64,000 nt of DNA from Candidatus Poribacteria bacterium (GTDB lineage: Bacteria > Poribacteria > WGA-4E > WGA-3G): contig CBDANF010000003.1 in the NCBI GenBank assembly GCA_965197475.1, positions 448,001-512,000 of the forward strand, given 5' to 3'. The notes under the pieces are model-generated. The model saw only the letters and a list, made by a program, of their open reading frames with translations, was not told the DNA's origin and made no database searches. The translations under genes and the position numbers were made by a program. Of the stretch, positions 50,092 through 59,753 are shown in pieces. How positions within the stretch are numbered: position 1 is the first letter of the stretch; each line of letters starts with the position of its first letter.

Positions 50092-53019
50092 ATGAAAATA
50101 CGGAAAATTCTTATAACTGCAATCGTTTTCGCAAGCATCATTTCGATTCTTCCAATTTCTCATGCTTTTGAGTTTTCTTGGCAAATAGACGAAACACCTG
50201 AAGGTCAAGAGAGTGCAACTGCCGTCGAACCGATAGAAGTAACACTCTTAGATCAGCCTATACACGTGTCATCTCACAGTGCAGCAATTTTTTTAATGAA
50301 AAAGTATTCAGTTTACATAGATACAAACTGGAGCGGTTTAGACGCATACAAGCTGCTACAAACATTTGAATCGATACCACAACGAACGAATTGGAGATTT
50401 GCGAGACAAGATGTGTCTCCGTCGGTTTGGCAAATCAGTAATAGCCACATTCATAACGACATAGACATAGAACATAGAAGTGACACAAGAGTAGTCACAA
50501 TCGCATCTGATGCTTTTACCTATGCAAACCCCCTATTAGCAGAAATTGAAGGTGTCCGAGGCAGATTCTTTTCCAAACGGCTACATAATGCTGTCGTTCG
50601 GTTTGTAACCGATGACGGTAATAATAGAGATGTTATCAATAAAATACTGCGAGAACGTTATGATGTAAGCATTGATGTACCTGATTATGCAGAATTGACA
50701 AAATACACGACAGGTGAGAATCGCCACCGCTTCTCTGAATTCAAAAGCGAAGAATTATTGGTAATTCTTTCTATGCTTGAGGAATTTCCCCAAGGGATGC
50801 TTACTACACCAGGACTCAAATACCTTGTTCGCAGACTTGACGGCACGCCCAACCCCATATACCCAACAGCCCCTGCCATTGCATGGACAAGCGCAGGATA
50901 CATTGAATTCATGGAATCTGCTTTTAAAAATGCAGGCTATGACTATATGCACCGTCTGATTCTGCATGAAAAGGCACATTTTCTTTGGGAATACTTATTT
51001 GACGAACAACTCAAACAAGATTGGATTGAAATCGGCGGCTGGTATGAAAACCCCGACGACAAGGATGGATGGTCAACTACAAAGCAAGTTGAATTTGTAT
51101 CTGCTTATGCACACGGAATCAACCCGAACGAGGACATGGCAGAGAGTATTAGTTTTTACATTGTGAGACCTGACAAATTACGCTCACGTGCCCCCGCAAA
51201 ATACGAATTTATCCAAAATCGCATCATGCACGGCACACGATACATCTCACAAATTAGAGAGGATTTAACATTTGAAGTTTATAACTTATATCCTGACTAC
51301 GTCTATCCTGGAAGAATCATACGAATAGACATTCAAGTTGAAGGTGAACCCGAAGAAGATAAACTCGCAAAAATTGAAATAGAATTACACAAAGAAAGCG
51401 AATTAGACGCAGCGACAGTGGCATCTATCAGAATATTCAGTCCAAAAGGATCGTATACTGGGTTAAGACTGCGTCCAGTTGACGCACAAGGTAATAGGAT
51501 ACCTGCGGGACACATCTTACGAGGAAGTGTAGAAATTTCACGATATGCCCCTGACGGCTATTGGAATCCTGACCAAATCAATTTAACAGACGCAAACTCC
51601 AACAGTCGTTATAGTTCAAAAGTCGATTTCAATTGGATGATGTATATAAACAACCCGTTAGCTGATTGCGAACCCCCGAAATATGTGTCAAACACAATGC
51701 GATTGTCACTCTCACAACCCCAAAATACTGATGAAGGTGAATATCAGATAGTTACAGCAAGATGGCAAGCAACTGATAAAACAGACATAGACACATTAGC
51801 AGCACGGATAAACGACACATTTTTAGAAACATACTCACGCTTTTCATACGGCAAATTTGACCCTGAAACAAACACGGCAGAAGTCAATTTTAAGTTCCCA
51901 AACTACATGCCTGGCGGTGTATATAGTCTCAACTATATCACAATGAGAGACATAGCATTAAACTATTCTGCATACTATTTCACCGATCCAGAGATGGACG
52001 AAGCACCACAAACAATAGAGATACACACTACGAATCCCGACTTTGAGACACCCGAATTGGATATGAACAATATCACTATAGAAGCCACACCGACAAACCC
52101 TGAAGAACCGAATGGAGAAACTATAGTTGATATAACATTCTTTGCTAGAGATAATATTAGCGGTTACACCAAATCAGATATGCGTTTACGCGACCCGAAC
52201 GGCGTCATACATTTGTTCCGCCACTATCCTAAAGGACGAAGTGCTTTATATTTCCCTGGCGATCCGACTATATATAAAGAATACAACAAAACAATCGTAT
52301 TATCAGTCGGTAGCATTCCTGGAATTTGGGGACTTGCAGAAATGGTTCTCTATGACAAAGCAGGTAACACTCTCAAAGCCGATTTTACAGAGATCGTGCG
52401 GTTTGTCGTTGATGATACACCCGGTTCCGCTAACAAAACAGATGTCAACGGTGATGGCAAGGTCAACATTCTTGATCTGGTTTTTGTTGCGAATGCATTT
52501 GATGAATATGACGCGAAAGCGGATGTCAACGGAGATGGGGTGGTTAGCATACTGGATTTAGTATTAGTCGCAAGCTCCCTGGGAAATGACGAAATGGCAG
52601 CACCAAGTCTACACAAAAACGACCTTCAAAACTGGCTAACATTAGCACTTCAAAATGACAACGGAAGCTATAGGTATCGCCAAGGTCTAAACGTGTTACA
52701 ACGTCTGCTACTCACAGCACAACCCGAAAAAACAGCGCTGTTGCCAAACTATCCAAACCCATTCAATCCGGAGACGTGGATACCGTATCAATTAGCAGAA
52801 CCCGCAGATGTCACACTACACATTTATACTTCAGAAGGAAAGATTGTAAGAACATTTGAAATTGGACACAGACGGGCAGGTAAATATATCACAAAAAGTA
52901 GTGCCGCGTATTGGGATGGTAAAAACAGTTTTGGCGAAGTAGTTTCGACTGGTATATACTTCTATGAATTGCGAACCGATAACCAATCATTCACGAGAAA
53001 AATGATAATCGTCAAATAG
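50092..53019 (+). CDS. Secreted zinc-metallopeptidase-like protein with dockerin-like repeats and a C-terminal T9SS/FlgD-Ig-like sorting domain
   Basis: Signal peptide; LILHEKAH (HExxH) with NPNEDMAES; two DVNGDGxVxILDLV repeats; LLPNYPNPFNPETWIPYQL...TRKMIIVK. Confidence 0.82.
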   Translation: MKIRKILITAIVFASIISILPISHAFEFSWQIDETPEGQESATAVEPIEVTLLDQPIHVSSHSAAIFLMKKYSVYIDTNWSGLDAYKLLQTFESIPQRTNWRFARQDVSPSVWQISNSHIHNDIDIEHRSDTRVVTIASDAFTYANPLLAEIEGVRGRFFSKRLHNAVVRFVTDDGNNRDVINKILRERYDVSIDVPDYAELTKYTTGENRHRFSEFKSEELLVILSMLEEFPQGMLTTPGLKYLVRRLDGTPNPIYPTAPAIAWTSAGYIEFMESAFKNAGYDYMHRLILHEKAHFLWEYLFDEQLKQDWIEIGGWYENPDDKDGWSTTKQVEFVSAYAHGINPNEDMAESISFYIVRPDKLRSRAPAKYEFIQNRIMHGTRYISQIREDLTFEVYNLYPDYVYPGRIIRIDIQVEGEPEEDKLAKIEIELHKESELDAATVASIRIFSPKGSYTGLRLRPVDAQGNRIPAGHILRGSVEISRYAPDGYWNPDQINLTDANSNSRYSSKVDFNWMMYINNPLADCEPPKYVSNTMRLSLSQPQNTDEGEYQIVTARWQATDKTDIDTLAARINDTFLETYSRFSYGKFDPETNTAEVNFKFPNYMPGGVYSLNYITMRDIALNYSAYYFTDPEMDEAPQTIEIHTTNPDFETPELDMNNITIEATPTNPEEPNGETIVDITFFARDNISGYTKSDMRLRDPNGVIHLFRHYPKGRSALYFPGDPTIYKEYNKTIVLSVGSIPGIWGLAEMVLYDKAGNTLKADFTEIVRFVVDDTPGSANKTDVNGDGKVNILDLVFVANAFDEYDAKADVNGDGVVSILDLVLVASSLGNDEMAAPSLHKNDLQNWLTLALQNDNGSYRYRQGLNVLQRLLLTAQPEKTALLPNYPNPFNPETWIPYQLAEPADVTLHIYTSEGKIVRTFEIGHRRAGKYITKSSAAYWDGKNSFGEVVSTGIYFYELRTDNQSFTRKMIIVK

Positions 53020-53031
53020 TATCAAATGACC

Positions 53032-53144
53032 ATAGGATATCTGGAAGGTTGATGTTTATTGGCTTCCCAGCGATCATTAATGAGTGGGTTGCGTTGGGAT
53101 CGCGAGCATCCTCTTTGAGAAATGATGCGTTTAGCGATAAACGT
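53032..53144 (-). ncRNA. Candidate element-encoded structured RNA
   Basis: Four tiled hairpins (53128-53143, 53106-53128, 53070-53103, 53041-53070) directly downstream of a TTGACA-17-TATACT promoter. Confidence 0.45.
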
Positions 53145-53150
53145 GTCTAA

Positions 53151-53179
53151 AGTATAGCAAAACCAGTAGCGGTTGTCAA
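53151..53179 (-). promoter_or_regulatory. Near-consensus sigma70 promoter inside the element's 3' end
   Basis: Minus strand TTGACA (53179-53174), 17 bp, TATACT (53156-53151), with an extended -10 TG. Confidence 0.7.
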
Positions 53180-53246
53180 CCATATTTTCAAGGCACCTGC
53201 CCCGGTTTTGCGAAGTAAAGTTCGTCGGGAACATAGGATTAGGGTC

Positions 53247-54131
53247 TCATTGGGCTTCTCCTTGGTGAGTGGCTTCATCGTTTGAGTCTGAATTGGCAAG
53301 GTCTGCATCTATGGCTTGGAGTTGGTGCTGCGGTATGAGGTCGAGATATTGAGAGATGACGCGTTTAGAAAGTCGTGTAATCTGTGAGATTTTATCAATA
53401 TCTGCGGTTGCTTTCCGAACGACTTTGACGCTCTCATAATCGCGAATGTATCTATCAACTGCCTCCTTAGAGTGTTTGGTCTTTGCGGCAATCCTGGGGG
53501 TGAGATGTCCTTGAAGATAGAGGGTTATGATCTCTTTCTTATGGGTAATAGCCCCCGATAAGTCATGGATATTGCCACGGGTGGGCAAGAGTTCTCCAGT
53601 GGTTTTTTGCCATTCATTAACATAATCACAGACAACGGCATCGCAGACATTGAGCAAAACTGCCAAGTCGAGTTGGGTCAATAATGCCCCTTGGTCATAA
53701 GCTTGATGACACCAGCGGACCAAGCGATTGATCCGCAATTGCCGGGAGGTGAAACCGTTGCGAAAGGATTCAATATCCTCTGCGGCGAGGTAAGTCAGGA
53801 TGACGGGTTTCATGCGGGTTTTGACGATGGACTTTCCTCTTTCTGGATGCTCTTCAATAGGGACGGCCATCCAAACGAGTTGTCCATAACTCAAGAAACG
53901 CTCATCCGGGAGTTGATCGCCGGTGGCGAGTTTCTCCAAAGGAAGGGTAATCACGAAATAGTCTTCAACGGTCTTAAGAATATCATCAACAATGGCGGTG
54001 GCAGTGACTTCGCCTTTGTCATAACCATAGTCATTGAGAAAGCGGTGAATGAGCAACTGTCGTAGGGACTTATCGTTGATGCGTCTGAATTTCTTCTCGT
54101 TGATTTGCGTGCGGGTTAGAGGTTTGCTCAT
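53247..54131 (-). CDS. DUF1670 domain protein (copy B)
   Basis: QAYDQGALLTQLDLAVLL, LPTRGNIHDLS..THK, HSKEAVDRYIRDY motifs. Confidence 0.85.
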   Translation of the reverse strand: MSKPLTRTQINEKKFRRINDKSLRQLLIHRFLNDYGYDKGEVTATAIVDDILKTVEDYFVITLPLEKLATGDQLPDERFLSYGQLVWMAVPIEEHPERGKSIVKTRMKPVILTYLAAEDIESFRNGFTSRQLRINRLVRWCHQAYDQGALLTQLDLAVLLNVCDAVVCDYVNEWQKTTGELLPTRGNIHDLSGAITHKKEIITLYLQGHLTPRIAAKTKHSKEAVDRYIRDYESVKVVRKATADIDKISQITRLSKRVISQYLDLIPQHQLQAIDADLANSDSNDEATHQGEAQ

Positions 54132-54928
54132 GAGAGGTCCCCCTTTTTTGTGTCCTCAGGTTCTGGGTGAAGGAGTTGGGTTATGCGATCTGTGTGTTGG
54201 TATTCCTCATAGAGTGAGAGATACTCGCGGATCAACCGGTCAGATAGATGGGTGATCAGGCGTATCTGTGCGTTAGGAAAGCCTTGATGATGGAGCGTAG
54301 CGACTTGTGTAAAGTCTTTCAAGTAGCGGTAGACAGCTCGTTCGCTGTGGTTCGTCTTTTTCTCGATTTCGGTGAAGGTATAGGCTTTGAAATATAACTC
54401 CAGGACCTGGGTTTTATGAGAAGTGCCGGGGCCCATGTCGTGTTTCGTCCCGCGCGTCATAACGAAATACCCATCCTGCTTCAAGTGTCGAATGTCGCGT
54501 TTGACTGTAGCAGGACTGGTGGTTAATAATACAGCTAAATCCTCGTAGCTCAGTAAGGCATCTTGGTCATAAGCTTCTTGGGTCAATCGGAGGATCCGAT
54601 GCCGTATGAGTCCTGCGAGACCATAATTCGCTAAGACTTCAAGATCGGCGTTTGTGTCATTGAGAGTTAGCCGACAGGAAACTTTTTTCGCTAAAGCGAT
54701 ATGTTTACCTGCGGGTTCCTCTGCGGCGACTGCCTCGTAGCAGATTTGCCCTGATGTCAGGTGCACATCGGCGTGTTGTTCAAAGTAGGTGGAAATCTGT
54801 TTATAGTAGGCTTCAGCAACGAGAGGCATTAGATTAAAGTCTGCTGAAATCTTCTGAATAATAGCGGCTCTGGCATTCTTGGATTCGAGCCGAGTGATAC
54901 CGTAAGCGGTATCCTTCTTGCGGTTCAT
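54128..54928 (-). CDS. DUF1670 domain protein (copy A)
   Basis: EAYDQDALLSYEDLAVLL, TRGTKHDMGPGTSHK, HSERAVYRYLKDF motifs; ATG 54928 after GGAGG; ATGA overlap with copy B. Confidence 0.85.
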   Translation of the reverse strand: MNRKKDTAYGITRLESKNARAAIIQKISADFNLMPLVAEAYYKQISTYFEQHADVHLTSGQICYEAVAAEEPAGKHIALAKKVSCRLTLNDTNADLEVLANYGLAGLIRHRILRLTQEAYDQDALLSYEDLAVLLTTSPATVKRDIRHLKQDGYFVMTRGTKHDMGPGTSHKTQVLELYFKAYTFTEIEKKTNHSERAVYRYLKDFTQVATLHHQGFPNAQIRLITHLSDRLIREYLSLYEEYQHTDRITQLLHPEPEDTKKGDLS

Positions 54929-55042
54929 ATTGACCTCCATGAATAGATTATCGGGGATCCGAGGACATCTACTCGTTAGTTTAACGAATACTAATAGTAT
55001 AACTCATGGGGTCATTTGATACAAACTATAAGTAAATTTAAA

Positions 55043-55906
55043 ATGACTGGACGCAATATCAAACTGGAATCTCGCACAAAAATACTTATCATGATGATAT
55101 GTGGTTGCCTTGTCATTTTGCTTGATAGTCCTACCGCGTTGTTAACATGTTTTGTTGCAAGTATCCTTCTCGTTGCGTTTTCAGCACCAACCCTAAAACA
55201 GATCCGATTGTTACTACTCTTCCTATTTTTCACAACATGGGGATTGATTTATAGTCAGGCAATTTTCTACAACGAATTTCCTCGCACAGTTTTAATTACG
55301 CTTGTTCCCGCCGAATTGCCAATCATCGGGGATATGACAGGCGGCATCCGAATCTATCGCGAAGGACTTTTTCACGGTATTATTCAATCGATGCGGTTTA
55401 ATACCACCCTTGTGATCGGTTGTTACATTGTTTGGACCACACAACCTCGCGACCTACTTCTGGCATTGGTGCAGTTACGTGTACCTGGGGCATTAGCGTT
55501 TATGGTGACAACCGCGTTGCGTTTTACTCCATTGATTGCGAATGAAACATTAGCAATCATCCGTTCTCAAAGATTGCGCGGATTCCGTTACCTACGGTTC
55601 AACCTATTTGTCACAGTGCGCGGTGTTATCAATAGTTTGCGTCCTATCTTGGCAGGGAATATTCGGCATGCATCCCACCTTGGAGAATCGGTTGAAAGCC
55701 GAGGATTCTCACCGGACACAACATCAAAACGGACTTCATTACGAATCTCACGGATGGACAGGTGGGATTATTGTTTGCTTGCGTTGCTATGCCTCTGCTT
55801 GTTCTGCGTCATTGGTTTGAAAGTGCTCTATTTCTGCTATGTGAATGGTATCTATTACGGGGCGTGGTTGAGAGGTGTGTATACATTTGCCCGAGAGGTG
55901 TTATGA
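55043..55906 (+). CDS. Energy-coupling factor transporter transmembrane component T (EcfT/CbiQ family)
   Basis: Multi-TM; ALRFTP, SQRLRG and VESRGF coupling motifs. The listed start at 55016 lies inside the element's inverted repeat, so ATG 55043 is preferred. Confidence 0.85.
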   Translation: MTGRNIKLESRTKILIMMICGCLVILLDSPTALLTCFVASILLVAFSAPTLKQIRLLLLFLFFTTWGLIYSQAIFYNEFPRTVLITLVPAELPIIGDMTGGIRIYREGLFHGIIQSMRFNTTLVIGCYIVWTTQPRDLLLALVQLRVPGALAFMVTTALRFTPLIANETLAIIRSQRLRGFRYLRFNLFVTVRGVINSLRPILAGNIRHASHLGESVESRGFSPDTTSKRTSLRISRMDRWDYCLLALLCLCLFCVIGLKVLYFCYVNGIYYGAWLRGVYTFAREVL

Positions 55907-55944
55907 GGGATTTAGTCCGTAGGTTGGATTGAGCGCGTGTAACC

Positions 55945-56234
55945 CATAGGCATCAATTTAGTGTGCTATATGCAAAAAGATGCTGATTTGTGATGATAGC
56001 AGCACCAGCGGTGCGGAATGTTATAGAAAACAGTGTCAAACAGTCTCTTGAACCCCAGCGGGGGCAGCATGCGCTTTTGGCATGCTGCATGAGGTGTCTG
56101 ACAACACGTACACATATACACCTTTCGCCCTCTGGGGCTTGAGTTTGGTAGGGGTCGCGTGTCTGGACACCTTTCGCCCTCTGGGACTTAGATATCCAAA
56201 ATATAGGTTTATTTCCTTAAATTGACACCTATGG
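55945..56234. repeat. MITE-like repeat with CCCCAGCGGGG and GCAGCATGC palindromes
   Basis: Inverted copy of the CACCTCATGCAGCATGCCA..GCATGCTGCCCCGCTGGGG block seen at about 32295 and 34861. Confidence 0.55.
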
Positions 56235-56404
56235 GTTGAGCGCGTGTAACCCAACAAAAGAGGCGCGTGAATTGCGCGACTACGAACGCGATACCTTTAA
56301 AATCCGCGTAATCCATGAAATTAGCGATAATTTGCGATTCTGACAAAAACCCGTGCGGTTAGGAAACCGCACCTACCGTCCATGGAGAACACTATGAGGT
56401 GAGA

Positions 56405-56944: not shown

Positions 56945-59137
56945 TTATTGATTTGGGTACGCCTTCTGCAAATGCCTTGGCATAGGAAAAAAGATTCCTT
57001 GAGTTTGTGCAGCGAGTGTTGTTTGAAAATCGTTAGGGTCTGGATAGCCTATCACATACGCGGTAATGCCTAATGATTGACATATCTCCAATGCTCTCTC
57101 CGCAGGATATTTGCCTGTAGTAGGTTCGTCAGTCAAAATAAGCAGGAATCGCCTCGCGTAAGGGCTAAATTTCACCTTAGGCACACCTTCAACGATAGCA
57201 TCAATAAGATGTTCATCACCACCAAATGGTTCTTCCATAAACCTTTTTATCAAACTTTCGTTGAGCGGCATCTGTGATACGACAGTCCCATTGATAGTCT
57301 TAATAGCATCTTTTGCTTCAGCAAAACGGATGAGTCCAATCCGATATTTTAGGGGAAAAATCGATAATCTGCCAATGAGTGTGCTTAACCCGAGCATGAC
57401 TGCATCCGCTTTTCCACCCATACTTCTGCTATAGTCTAACATTACCACAACATCGACGAGCGGTTCAGCACTGTTATTTGTTGTAGATGCACTTGGTTGT
57501 GCACCAATGTAAACTTTGAGACTATCTCTATCTCTCCGAATCGTATAAAATTGGTTGTTCCACCGGTCAGTAACGGTCCATCTATGAACAGATTGCCTTG
57601 CTCGAGCTATAAGATTAGCATCCAAATTCCAATAGTTTGGGGAGGCACCTGCATAAACGTTTATCTTATTTTCATCTTTACGAAGGGCATAAATTTGCTC
57701 ATTGCCGTAGTCTGTAATTACTAACAAATCATTATTCCGTTTTTCTAAAATTGCTGCATATCCCTCACTGAAAAAATCCGTTTTCAAGCCAAGCTCTTTG
57801 TTATCGAATTCTTGTTGTATTTTATTTATAGGGATATCACCTTCTTCAAAAAGCACTTCAAACTGTAATTCAAGGCTAAATAGCATTTTGCTACCGTTTT
57901 GCTGAATATCAGTAGCAATATCTTTGAATAATTTGAGAAGCGGGCGGTTCCCAACGCGATTACTTGGGAGTGCGGCGGGATTGGCGGGATTATAGAGGCT
58001 ACCGGGTATTTGTTCCCATACGCCCCCAGTGGCATCAGCTAATGTCTGCTGAAAAGGTTCGGGAAATCCAAGTATGTTTACGCGAACTTCCTCAAATTGA
58101 GATTGATCGATTACTTTTGCTCGCATATTAGTTATTGCGTTCTTTTCTCTCAAACTGGTTGATGCGGGTTCATCTGTAACTAAGATTAAGTGCTTTTCGG
58201 CGTCTGTGTGAAATTCCATATAGTCCAATGTATACAAAAGTGCATCAAGTGCATTTTCATCTCCACTCAGATGAACTTCTTTCATTCGCCGTCGAAGAAC
58301 ACTGACATCAGGTAACAGCGCACGTGTTTCGACCTTTTGACCCTTTTGCCGGACACTGAATTCAGACATGCCAAAATGGTATTCGAGATTGATAAGATCA
58401 AATGCATCCGTCATGCTATAAAGGTTTTCGGCGACCTGCTGGATGTTGTCGCGCATACTGGCACTTGTATCAAGCACAAAGACCACGTTGATCTTATCAA
58501 GTTCCCGTGTGCTAATAATATGCTCAGCAATCTTTTTGAGTGCTTCTCCGATTGGATTAGTACCACCGTCGTCTTTTCTAATTCCTTCTCCGATAGTTCC
58601 AATTTCTGCAGTTCCTTTTGACTCAAGCCTGTGAAATCCACTTTCGCCATCGCCTTTGACACGTTGTCGAAGACTTTTCACCCCTGCGCCTGAAGAGATT
58701 TCAAAGGGACTTGTGACAGATTTTGGAAGTGCTGCTGTACGGCTATTCAAATGCGTTGCTTGTGTTGTAACTTCAGGTAGTTTTGTCACTGTTTCAGACA
58801 CTGATTTTGTAGCATTGTGCATCAATACCTTCTTGGAAGGGCGAAGGGTTTCATCGATTAAATTTGAAGAAGCTTTTAAGGCAACATGTTTTGGACGGTA
58901 ATCAGAAATAGATTTGGTCTGTTTTGAGGTAAGTGTTTGCTTCGGTAGTGGTCGTTTTAATCTGCGTTGTTTCTGGGTATCCTTCATATCTATAAATTCC
59001 ACCCCAACAACATCTTCAATTTCATTACTAAGATGTGCATAGTAGAAAAATGTAAAAAGTATAGCGATGCAGAGATGGACAATCCCGGCAATCAGACAGG
59101 CATTCAATGAGCGTTGTTTTACTTCAGATCGAATCAT
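56945..59137 (-). CDS. Membrane-anchored protein with two von Willebrand factor A domains
   Basis: N-terminal TM, extended linker, two MIDAS motifs (LDTSASM, LDYSRSM), each followed by LxTDEP. Confidence 0.85.
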   Translation of the reverse strand: MIRSEVKQRSLNACLIAGIVHLCIAILFTFFYYAHLSNEIEDVVGVEFIDMKDTQKQRRLKRPLPKQTLTSKQTKSISDYRPKHVALKASSNLIDETLRPSKKVLMHNATKSVSETVTKLPEVTTQATHLNSRTAALPKSVTSPFEISSGAGVKSLRQRVKGDGESGFHRLESKGTAEIGTIGEGIRKDDGGTNPIGEALKKIAEHIISTRELDKINVVFVLDTSASMRDNIQQVAENLYSMTDAFDLINLEYHFGMSEFSVRQKGQKVETRALLPDVSVLRRRMKEVHLSGDENALDALLYTLDYMEFHTDAEKHLILVTDEPASTSLREKNAITNMRAKVIDQSQFEEVRVNILGFPEPFQQTLADATGGVWEQIPGSLYNPANPAALPSNRVGNRPLLKLFKDIATDIQQNGSKMLFSLELQFEVLFEEGDIPINKIQQEFDNKELGLKTDFFSEGYAAILEKRNNDLLVITDYGNEQIYALRKDENKINVYAGASPNYWNLDANLIARARQSVHRWTVTDRWNNQFYTIRRDRDSLKVYIGAQPSASTTNNSAEPLVDVVVMLDYSRSMGGKADAVMLGLSTLIGRLSIFPLKYRIGLIRFAEAKDAIKTINGTVVSQMPLNESLIKRFMEEPFGGDEHLIDAIVEGVPKVKFSPYARRFLLILTDEPTTGKYPAERALEICQSLGITAYVIGYPDPNDFQTTLAAQTQGIFFPMPRHLQKAYPNQ

Positions 59138-59249: not shown

Positions 59250-59753
59250 GGGTGTGTAAAGTTTTGTCATTGAGAACGTAAAGATGTGTATTGCCAAAAG
59301 ATATTAACACTTTCAATATTGTGTGTTTAATTAGGACGTTTAGCACGTCCCACGGACGTGCTAATGCCAAGCAGTACAAGGATTAGGACGTGATTTTGTG
59401 TGTGTTTTTTTGCATCTTCTCTGGTTTCACCTGCAACATTAGTGGTCAACATCTGAATATATAATCGTTGTGTGATAATAAGTATAACATAGATACGTGT
59501 GTTTGTCAAATTATTTAGAAGAATTTAGTCTTTTACCAAAACTTTACACACCCTGCTCCACATTTCCTACCCTCTTGGGTGTGTAAATATTTTGTCGCAT
59601 AGGTTCAATTTGCGAAAAATCCTTCGCGTTTTTCTACTGTAGGGCGGGGTCTGTGTGCCCGCCATGTCTGATGTATCCAAACAATGGGCGGGCACAGGGA
59701 CCCGCCCCTACAATGAGTGGTGGACAGATTTTGTCAAAAACTTTACACACCCC
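59250..59753. mobile_element. Composite of two MITEs with GGGTGTGTAAA ends
   Basis: Units 59250..59553 and 59577..59753; AAAGTTAA directly repeated outside the outer ends; a solo end at about 45931. Confidence 0.7.

Follow-up and report, generated by a model that had tools for sequence, protein, structure and literature searches.

The window analysed here is a 64,000-nucleotide stretch of contig CBDANF010000003.1 from a Candidatus Poribacteria bacterium, and all coordinates refer to it. On its minus strand it carries a 2,018 bp insertion element (53014-55031) with two genes for DUF1670 proteins, here called A and B. The non-coding right arm of this element contains an outward-facing promoter, P-out. 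Judged by its conservation, P-out is real and shows the pattern of a promoter under selection across the subfamilies of the element, since both hexamers, the TG and the spacing are kept while the spacer sequence drifts. Our tentative reading is that the arm consists of this promoter and a structured leader which together regulate the element, and that P-out probably drives the DUF1670 genes when the two element ends are joined.

P-out comprises TTGACA, a 17-bp spacer and TATACT, with a TG before the -10 element (53179..53151, minus strand), and is located after the stop codon of gene B (53247). It matches the consensus at 11 of 12 positions and was the top site of the region in a consensus scan. 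The -35 hexamer lies at 53174..53179 and the extended -10 element (TGcTATACT) at 53151..53159. From the position of the promoter, transcription is predicted to start at 53144 (minus strand), the seventh base past the -10 element, and to proceed away from the DUF1670 genes, through the right inverted repeat and toward the right end (53014). With hexamers near the consensus, a 17-bp spacer and the TG, the site has the make-up of a sigma-70-type promoter. Five sites in the window match at 11 or more of the 12 positions, compared to 1.6 ± 1.0 in shuffled sequences; for sites of this quality with a TG the numbers are 3 and 0.2.

Conservation was examined in 94 tails of the element, which represent 59 distinct sequences. 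Six tails from other phyla, one tail cut by a contig end (locus L034) and one deletion derivative were dropped, leaving 51 distinct tails of the Poribacteria type. TATACT is present in 51/51 and the TG in 50/51 of these. The -35 hexamer is TTGACA in 39 tails, TTGGCA in five, TTGATA in four and TTGAGA, TTGGAA or TCGGAA in one each; the 12 deviating hexamers match TTGACA at four or five of six positions. The spacer is 17 bp long in 32 tails, 18 bp in 18 and 16 bp in one, and many of its positions are merely 50-66% conserved. The original prediction of an element-internal promoter that points toward the element end is thus confirmed, and a conserved non-coding stretch follows downstream of it.

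The same design, TTGACA-17-TGnTATACT, was observed at 59509..59481 (minus strand), upstream of a VWA-domain gene (59137..56945). Its presence upstream of an ordinary host gene suggests that the organism uses the architecture of P-out. The left end of the element features only a weak -35 (TTGTAT, three of six positions) before a TATACT, as seen by eye. This -10-like TATACT falls within a palindrome, ATACTA-n-TAGTAT (54991-55005). A small hairpin was also noticed by eye in the 5' leader of gene A (around 54955-54975), with arms that differ between subfamilies and remain complementary (GATGG/CCATC, GATGA/TCATC and GATGGC/GCCATC in the left ends of L040, L070, L071, L076 and L096). In L117, a metagenome relative with 72% protein identity and an unrelated tail, an outward TTGACA-17-TATCAT lies about 60 nt from the right end (by eye). 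Outward promoters may therefore recur in other lineages.

The only open reading frame (ORF) over the arm (53234..53022, 70 aa) begins upstream of the promoter. It was rejected as a gene, as one-base insertions and deletions among copies and relatives break the frame and a Pfam match is lacking, which bears out the earlier statement that no credible coding sequence follows the promoter. A micro-ORF of 10-17 codons starting from GGATGC, found by eye, was also discarded. Its ATG is lost in L070 and L084-88, the L040 type has an early stop, and a short subfamily of the element has the entire micro-ORF deleted.

The extent of the element was obtained from BLAST searches and an alignment of all copies. 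The 301 bases around the P-out region occur 20 times in the window's own genome. These 20 copies comprise 18 full-length elements, one internally deleted element and one deletion derivative of 0.47 kb. The inverted-repeat motif was found as 20 pairs and one solo copy; 18 pairs are spaced by 1989-1998 bp, one by 1758 bp and one by 418 bp. A search with this motif revealed no other class of element with the same ends in the window's genome. At the left end, the conserved terminal bases TTATAGTTTG (55022-55031) precede the 12-bp left terminal inverted repeat TATCAAATGACC (55010..55021). The right end consists of the 12-bp repeat GGTCATTTGATA (53020..53031) and the terminal CTATTT (53014..53019), all given for the minus strand. 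In other subfamilies, the coding regions of which are about 77% identical at the DNA level, left and right repeats change together (TATCATATGCCC with GGGCATATGATA, TCTCATATGACC with GGTCATATGAGA), indicating that the repeats are functional ends. Multiple copies, terminal inverted repeats and two element-encoded DUF1670 genes are the general marks of an insertion sequence. The element is present in 12 of 41 related genomes, the window's own included.

The two DUF1670 genes are arranged in tandem on the minus strand, and the neighbouring host gene is convergent with them. This host gene (50092..53019, plus strand) codes for 975 aa with dockerin, FlgD_ig and type IX secretion system (T9SS) C-terminal sorting domains according to Pfam. 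Read along the element, the right flank corresponds to the final part of a T9SS C-terminal-domain (CTD) gene in reverse complement. The last six bases of the element read AAA TAG on the host strand and thus form the last Lys codon and the stop codon of the host gene. Among 116 copies examined, eight had no right end in the retrieved DNA and four had too short a flank, so that 104 were readable. The strict CTD-end motif '..(R/K)(K/R)M....K-stop' fits 84 of these right flanks, and 18 of the 20 in the window's genome. Six of the 104 copies are sited in a repetitive extragenic palindromic (REP)-like palindrome; the other 14 are unclassified, eight of them being CTD-like by eye.

With a profile built from occupied ends, 53 CTD-type gene ends were counted in the genome, 16 of which are occupied. 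Empty ends are mostly AAG TAA, AAG TAG or AAA TGA, in agreement with the YTAY/TCAC bases found directly left of occupied copies. This indicates that the element inserts within the last codon and supplies a new Lys-stop. Occupied and empty ends are alike except at wobble positions, which vary freely. As to a target-site duplication, the junctions fall in a T-run, and any length from 0 to 3 bp agrees equally well with the empty REP sites and the empty CTD ends. In the REP-sited sublineage (L084-87, L091, L112), the element lies in the loop of a palindrome with 13-bp arms. Empty copies of this palindrome (e.g. L129, L130) number 40, 26 and 8 in three related genomes, with none in the window's genome. 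The arm of the REP-sited elements is nearly identical to that of the CTD-targeting L070 (6 of 127 positions differ between L070 and L087, by eye). Between L070 and L084, protein A differs by 6% and protein B by 11%. The 0.47-kb derivative (G000:C3:94094-94563), likewise at the end of a CTD gene, retains some 300 bp at the left end together with the right arm, the latter starting approximately at the promoter spacer or -10 element.

Elements whose proteins are 59-66% identical, and whose ends and type of flank agree with those described here, were found in Ignavibacteria, Gemmatimonadota, Zixibacteria, a Bacteroidetes (Bacteroidota) metagenome-assembled genome and metagenome contigs. These relatives have the inverted repeat, the CTATTT terminus and the CTD target in common with the Poribacteria element, whereas their tails are AT-rich and unrelated to the Poribacteria arm. 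Covariance model R1 recognised nothing in the tails from other phyla beyond the inverted repeat (E 0.036-0.74). As ends and target are family-wide but the tails are not related, the arm appears to be a lineage-specific regulatory part and not a core cofactor.

From the predicted start to the terminus the arm measures about 126 nt, and 125-130 nt in 41 distinct long forms. In a short subfamily (about a dozen loci), 36 nt are missing from the middle of the arm, yet this subfamily is multi-copy. The comparative analysis favours two imperfect stem-loop domains. The 5' domain (53092..53143, minus strand) is formed by CGTT/AACG, ATCGC/GCGAT and GCATC..GATGC with an inner TCTC/GAG; it is restricted to the main lineage, and the 36-nt deletion of the short subfamily takes out part of it. 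A mostly unpaired linker, CCCAACGCAACCCACTCAT (53080..53098, minus strand), is conserved in the alignments of copies and tails. The subterminal hairpin (53036..53075, minus strand) adjoins the right repeat, has a conserved apical loop (53049-53062) and is the only domain present in all Poribacteria lineages.

This architecture differs from the four hairpins that were originally drawn along the transcript. The complementary segments named there are present, but one G belongs to both helix 1 and helix 2 and one C to both helix 3 and helix 4, which prevents all four from forming in full. In addition, helix 3 is paired in only 68.8% of cells, and one of its pairs is open in 28 of 41 sequences. The four-hairpin model was rejected. 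The 132-nt fold of the window copy has a minimum free energy of -24.2 kcal/mol (z -1.51; 18/200 shuffles fold as well) and pairs ATCGC with GCGAT instead of forming helices 1 and 3. Its subterminal hairpin is the weakest observed (z -0.54). A universal 5'-terminal hairpin was also considered and dropped, as a fold better than that of 95% of shuffles was obtained for only 12 of 34 distinct 5' ends.

With RNAalifold, the main group (30 sequences) yielded both domains (-40.4) and the divergent group (11 sequences) the subterminal hairpin only (-22.3). The arms of this hairpin are GAT.GCTGGGA.G with C.TTCCAGC.ATC in the main group, and the different pair TGATGAT with ATCATCA in the divergent group. 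Mean fold z values were lower for the sense strand than for the reverse complement, with -2.0 against -1.2 for the whole transcript, -2.07 against -1.43 for the 5' domain and -2.64 against -2.12 for the subterminal hairpin. The value of the 5' domain is near 0 in the divergent group.

On alignment A2 (MAFFT), the original model, trimmed to 22 pairs, was paired in 79.1% of cells, with changes on both sides in 7/22 pairs (reached in 127/500 shuffles) and a covariation score of 0.169 (shuffle mean 0.115). The two-domain model on the same alignment was paired in 85.8% of cells, with both-side changes in 8/32 pairs (57/500 shuffles) and a score of 0.133 (0.109). On a fitted alignment of 53 distinct sequences, which leans towards the two-domain model by construction, the corresponding values were 86.9%, 11/32 pairs (32/500 shuffles) and 0.141 (0.090); slid controls on this alignment scored 0.037-0.065. 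Of the conserved and covarying structure that was looked for, the first part holds in so far as a two-domain fold is compatible with the sequences, while covariation is weak and most pairs are invariant. The subterminal hairpin is the general feature of this fold, which may form on either strand.

Gene A (54128..54940, minus strand) is listed with 270 aa, although a start at the second ATG (54928), behind GGAGG, is likelier. Gene B (53247..54131, minus strand) codes for 294 aa. Both products match PF07900 (E 2.5e-61 for A and 1.2e-61 for B) and show extra helix-turn-helix matches in Pfam; the NCBI naming is only DUF1670 domain-containing. The AlphaFold model of protein B (predicted local distance difference test score 85) consists of an N-terminal alpha/beta part followed by three helix-turn-helix modules, modelled as a winged helix, a sigma-region-4-like and a SANT/Myb-like module. 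Pfam searches with both proteins (E ≤ 0.01) yielded DUF1670 and helix-turn-helix matches only, with no RuvC-type, DEDD, serine recombinase, TnpB/IscB, HUH or DDE domain. Foldseek with protein B found nothing in the PDB at E ≤ 0.001. A wide structural search with this protein returned only helix-turn-helix, winged-helix, sigma-region-4 and SANT-like matches (Z ≤ 6.4). NCBIfam gave nothing above its cut-offs, and PDB sequence profile and Atlas searches yielded no function. No catalytic fold is recognised in the DUF1670 proteins, the N-terminal part of B being barely probed by the fold searches.

A word-indexed search yielded 1,540 relatives of protein B at E ≤ 0.001, and a full scan 1,017 cluster representatives. 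Across 37 family members, A144, H197, K198, H220 and Y228 are invariant. A cluster of invariant or nearly invariant polar positions was observed in the helix-turn-helix region (P183, R185, G186, D190, H197, K198, H220, Y228, Y262), and such a cluster would be compatible with a catalytic site. Three DUF1670 units per polypeptide occur in some family members (P0133, P0135, P0141, P0143; 930-952 aa) and two in others (P0183, P0239, P0261; 519-532 aa). They represent natural fusions of what the element encodes as separate genes, A and B. In copies L054, L056 and L105-L108, the protein B match is extended by about 410 bases and the B frame is terminated prematurely, which suggests a nested small insertion inside gene B. 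Further away, between the CbiQ-like and MoCF-like genes, a repeat of about 300 bp (55941-56255) unrelated to the element has around 20 further copies in the genome (74-98% identity) and may be a miniature inverted-repeat transposable element or a REP-type element.

The interpretation that we prefer, though tentatively, starts from P-out making a structured read-out RNA. In the chromosome, this RNA would do no more than enter the convergent host gene in antisense direction. With the right and left ends joined, either in an excised circle or in a head-to-tail copy, P-out would come to lie about 230 nt upstream of gene A and could drive the DUF1670 operon, which otherwise has only the weak -35 of the left end. 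A leader that drives the genes after circularisation had been mentioned in the original prediction as an alternative to a guide or partner RNA; it is viable and is the account preferred here. A regulatory leader is preferred because the module is lineage-specific, because an active subfamily tolerates the 36-nt deletion, and because no target information can be read from the RNA.

Several observations weigh against this interpretation. A pattern search for joined ends, circular or in tandem, found none in 176 genomes of the phylum, where assemblies rarely keep such forms, and a circular intermediate is an assumption for DUF1670 elements. P-out is complete and lies 126 nt inside the end instead of being split across the tips. 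Simple read-through needs neither a conserved arm length nor a conserved arm sequence. When all 41 long forms were folded together, RNAalifold found no common structure (-0.3 kcal/mol, three pairs inside the inverted repeat). Covariation in the two-domain model is weak, with 57/500 shuffles reaching its 8/32 pairs and 32/500 reaching its 11/32 pairs, and in the alignments true compensatory change is scarce and confined to a few lineages. Finally, the RNA-library data are assembled contigs from which strand, ends or level cannot be read and which possibly include DNA. Fifteen RNA-library runs contain part of the stretch, and four of them, from three studies, were mapped. The arm is covered by contigs X6 (53017-53179) and X4 (53021-53169), X5 (53080-53403) joins gene B to the arm, and X1 (52716-53109) joins the host gene to the element across the right junction. 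The arm is not covered clearly more deeply than gene B, and the contigs end at boundaries of the element or of variants.

Comparison with known systems places P-out between several types. In IS911, IS30 and IS2, as proposed for the element described here, an outward promoter of the right end is positioned upstream of the transposase genes once the ends are joined. Junction promoters of the IS911/IS30 type are split, with the -35 in the right tip and the -10 in the left tip, and are active only when the ends abut; P-out, however, is complete at 126 nt from the tip, the DUF1670 proteins are not DDE transposases, and joined ends were absent from the 176 genomes. Complete outward promoters near the end are also found in ISAba1, ISEcp1 and IS481, where they are known for switching on neighbouring genes, whereas P-out faces the 3' end of a convergent host gene and would give only antisense RNA there. 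The outward promoter pOUT of IS10 resembles P-out in that it makes a small stem-loop RNA which regulates the element. RNA-OUT is complementary to the beginning of the transposase mRNA; the P-out RNA, in contrast, would be made at the other end of the element, and only its inverted repeat is complementary to the left end. With the repeat left out, the best duplex with the left end or the start of gene A had -31.4 kcal/mol, compared to -29.6 ± 3.8 for shuffles, and 92/300 shuffles were as good. A 'GATGT..ATT' motif that seemed by eye to be common to the left end and the right arm was discarded, as local-alignment z values ranged from -1.3 to 2.4 over 27 subfamilies and exceeded 2 in one.

Two further systems underlay the original suggestion of a guide RNA. 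The bridge or seek RNA of IS110/IS1111 is encoded beside a recombinase with DEDD (RuvC-like) and serine 'Tnp' domains, and its loops are complementary to the target and donor ends. With this group the element would share a non-coding RNA encoded in a non-coding terminal region, together with high site specificity, but it has terminal inverted repeats, no DEDD or serine recombinase and no loops complementary to target or donor ends. The omega or right-end RNA of IS200/IS605 TnpB elements continues past the right end into about 16-20 nt of flank, which are used as guide. Likewise, the RNA considered here would be a structured right-end RNA reaching to or over the boundary with a subterminal hairpin by the end; it differs in that the element has terminal inverted repeats, no TnpB/IscB or HUH gene, no Rfam match and no guide-target relation.

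For the guide hypothesis, the RNA of 83 copies, without the repeat, was matched against 40 nt of flank on each side. On the right flank the longest exact match averaged 6.47 nt (6.20 nt for shuffled RNA) and on the left 6.24 nt (6.18 nt), with no excess in either case. The commonest recurrent 6-mer match was found in 12 of the 83 copies. Loop-to-target complementarity was negative in this test. In a comparison of subfamilies, an internal CTCAT..GAT motif was unchanged where the inverted repeat changes. Rfam gave no match to the arm, the only two matches in 52900-55150 lying elsewhere with E values above 6. The analogy to bridge, seek and omega RNAs was therefore given up, given the lack of flank complementarity, of a recombinase gene and of an Rfam match, and the unrelated tails in other phyla. 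A guide derived from the flank was rejected too, since occupied and empty CTD ends vary at wobble positions and the L070 and L084 proteins differ. For the same two reasons, readout by the proteins would be a simpler account of target choice than base pairing, and the sequences disfavour the arm RNA as a programmable guide.

A guide RNA of either type, the loops or a flank-derived 3' extension of which would pair with the CTD stop-codon target, is accordingly regarded as highly improbable. Such an RNA would be encoded where one expects it, at the end of a highly site-specific element and reading into the flank, and the REP-sited sublineage with its different target and near-unchanged arm would suit a flank-derived guide. 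These points are outweighed by the shuffle-level flank matches, by the internal motif that does not track the inverted repeat, by the many mismatches that wobble variation would impose on a guide from the donor flank, by protein differences that suffice for a protein-based switch, and by the missing RuvC, DEDD and serine recombinase domains and Rfam match. A discrete structured RNA of about 126 nt that acts as a regulatory or scaffold partner of the DUF1670 proteins in Poribacteria, free of target information, is a possible though doubtful alternative. The conserved promoter, the constant arm length and the conserved apical loop and linker speak for it, as does the sense fold that exceeds the antisense fold (in domain 2 of the L030 type, z is about -2.9 against -0.45, as G-U pairs fail on the other strand). 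The absence of a recognisable catalytic fold in the DUF1670 proteins would leave room for an unusual cofactor. However, no terminator was called by the scan, the contigs gave no sign of a separate species, which such data are unable to show, and covariation is weak. Furthermore, the 5' domain is missing in the 11 divergent sequences and partly deleted in an active subfamily, and the tails in other phyla are unrelated. The more specific proposal that the right-end transcript is a dedicated partner of the DUF1670 pair, a scaffold that reads into the host flank and helps to find or act on the Lys-stop or REP loop, is very unlikely.

Two other accounts assign the arm a role in the chromosome. P-out and the subterminal hairpin might counteract or stop transcription entering from the host gene, which would otherwise cross the right end and the DUF1670 genes in antisense direction. 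The convergent arrangement is constant, with the CTD-end motif in 84/104 copies and 18/20 in this genome; on the host-gene strand (mean -15.3 kcal/mol, z -2.1) the hairpin equals that of the element strand in stability, and an RNA contig links the host gene into the element. On the other hand, the hairpin has no U-tract on either strand, no terminator was called there, and copies in REP-like palindromes or other sites retain the same arm. A shield against host read-in has no established precedent to our knowledge, and we regard it as unlikely. It is quite unlikely that the arm is mainly a DNA-level transposition end, i.e. an array of binding sites for six helix-turn-helix modules with the promoter as an incidental by-product. 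Domain 2 is palindromic on both strands, most pairs are invariant instead of covarying, the proteins consist of DNA-binding modules, and the deletion derivative retains the arm from the -10 onward. Yet a by-product would not retain -35, spacing, TG and -10 amid a drifting spacer, and the stem arms change between lineages and remain complementary. Moreover, the left end has no significant similarity to the right arm beyond the repeat, unlike typical paired arrays. The regulatory leader thus stays the preferred, if tentative, interpretation.

No paper on DUF1670 or PF07900 was found in the library searched, descriptions outside of which are possible, and the works found there on insertion sequences and transposases of Poribacteria do not, by their titles, concern a DUF1670 element. 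The family, carried by sponge bacteria, therefore appears to be undescribed. Its target is unusually precise, being the last codon of T9SS cargo genes in at least five phyla, with the Lys-stop of the host restored. Several families of insertion sequences regulate their own movement through outward promoters and end-encoded RNAs, and some programme it in this way. A dedicated RNA partner, if true, would represent a new kind of RNA-assisted transposition system. The lack of readable target information in the RNA helps to decide between target choice by protein and by RNA, and a real and conserved P-out would provide a concrete handle on the expression and movement of DUF1670 elements.

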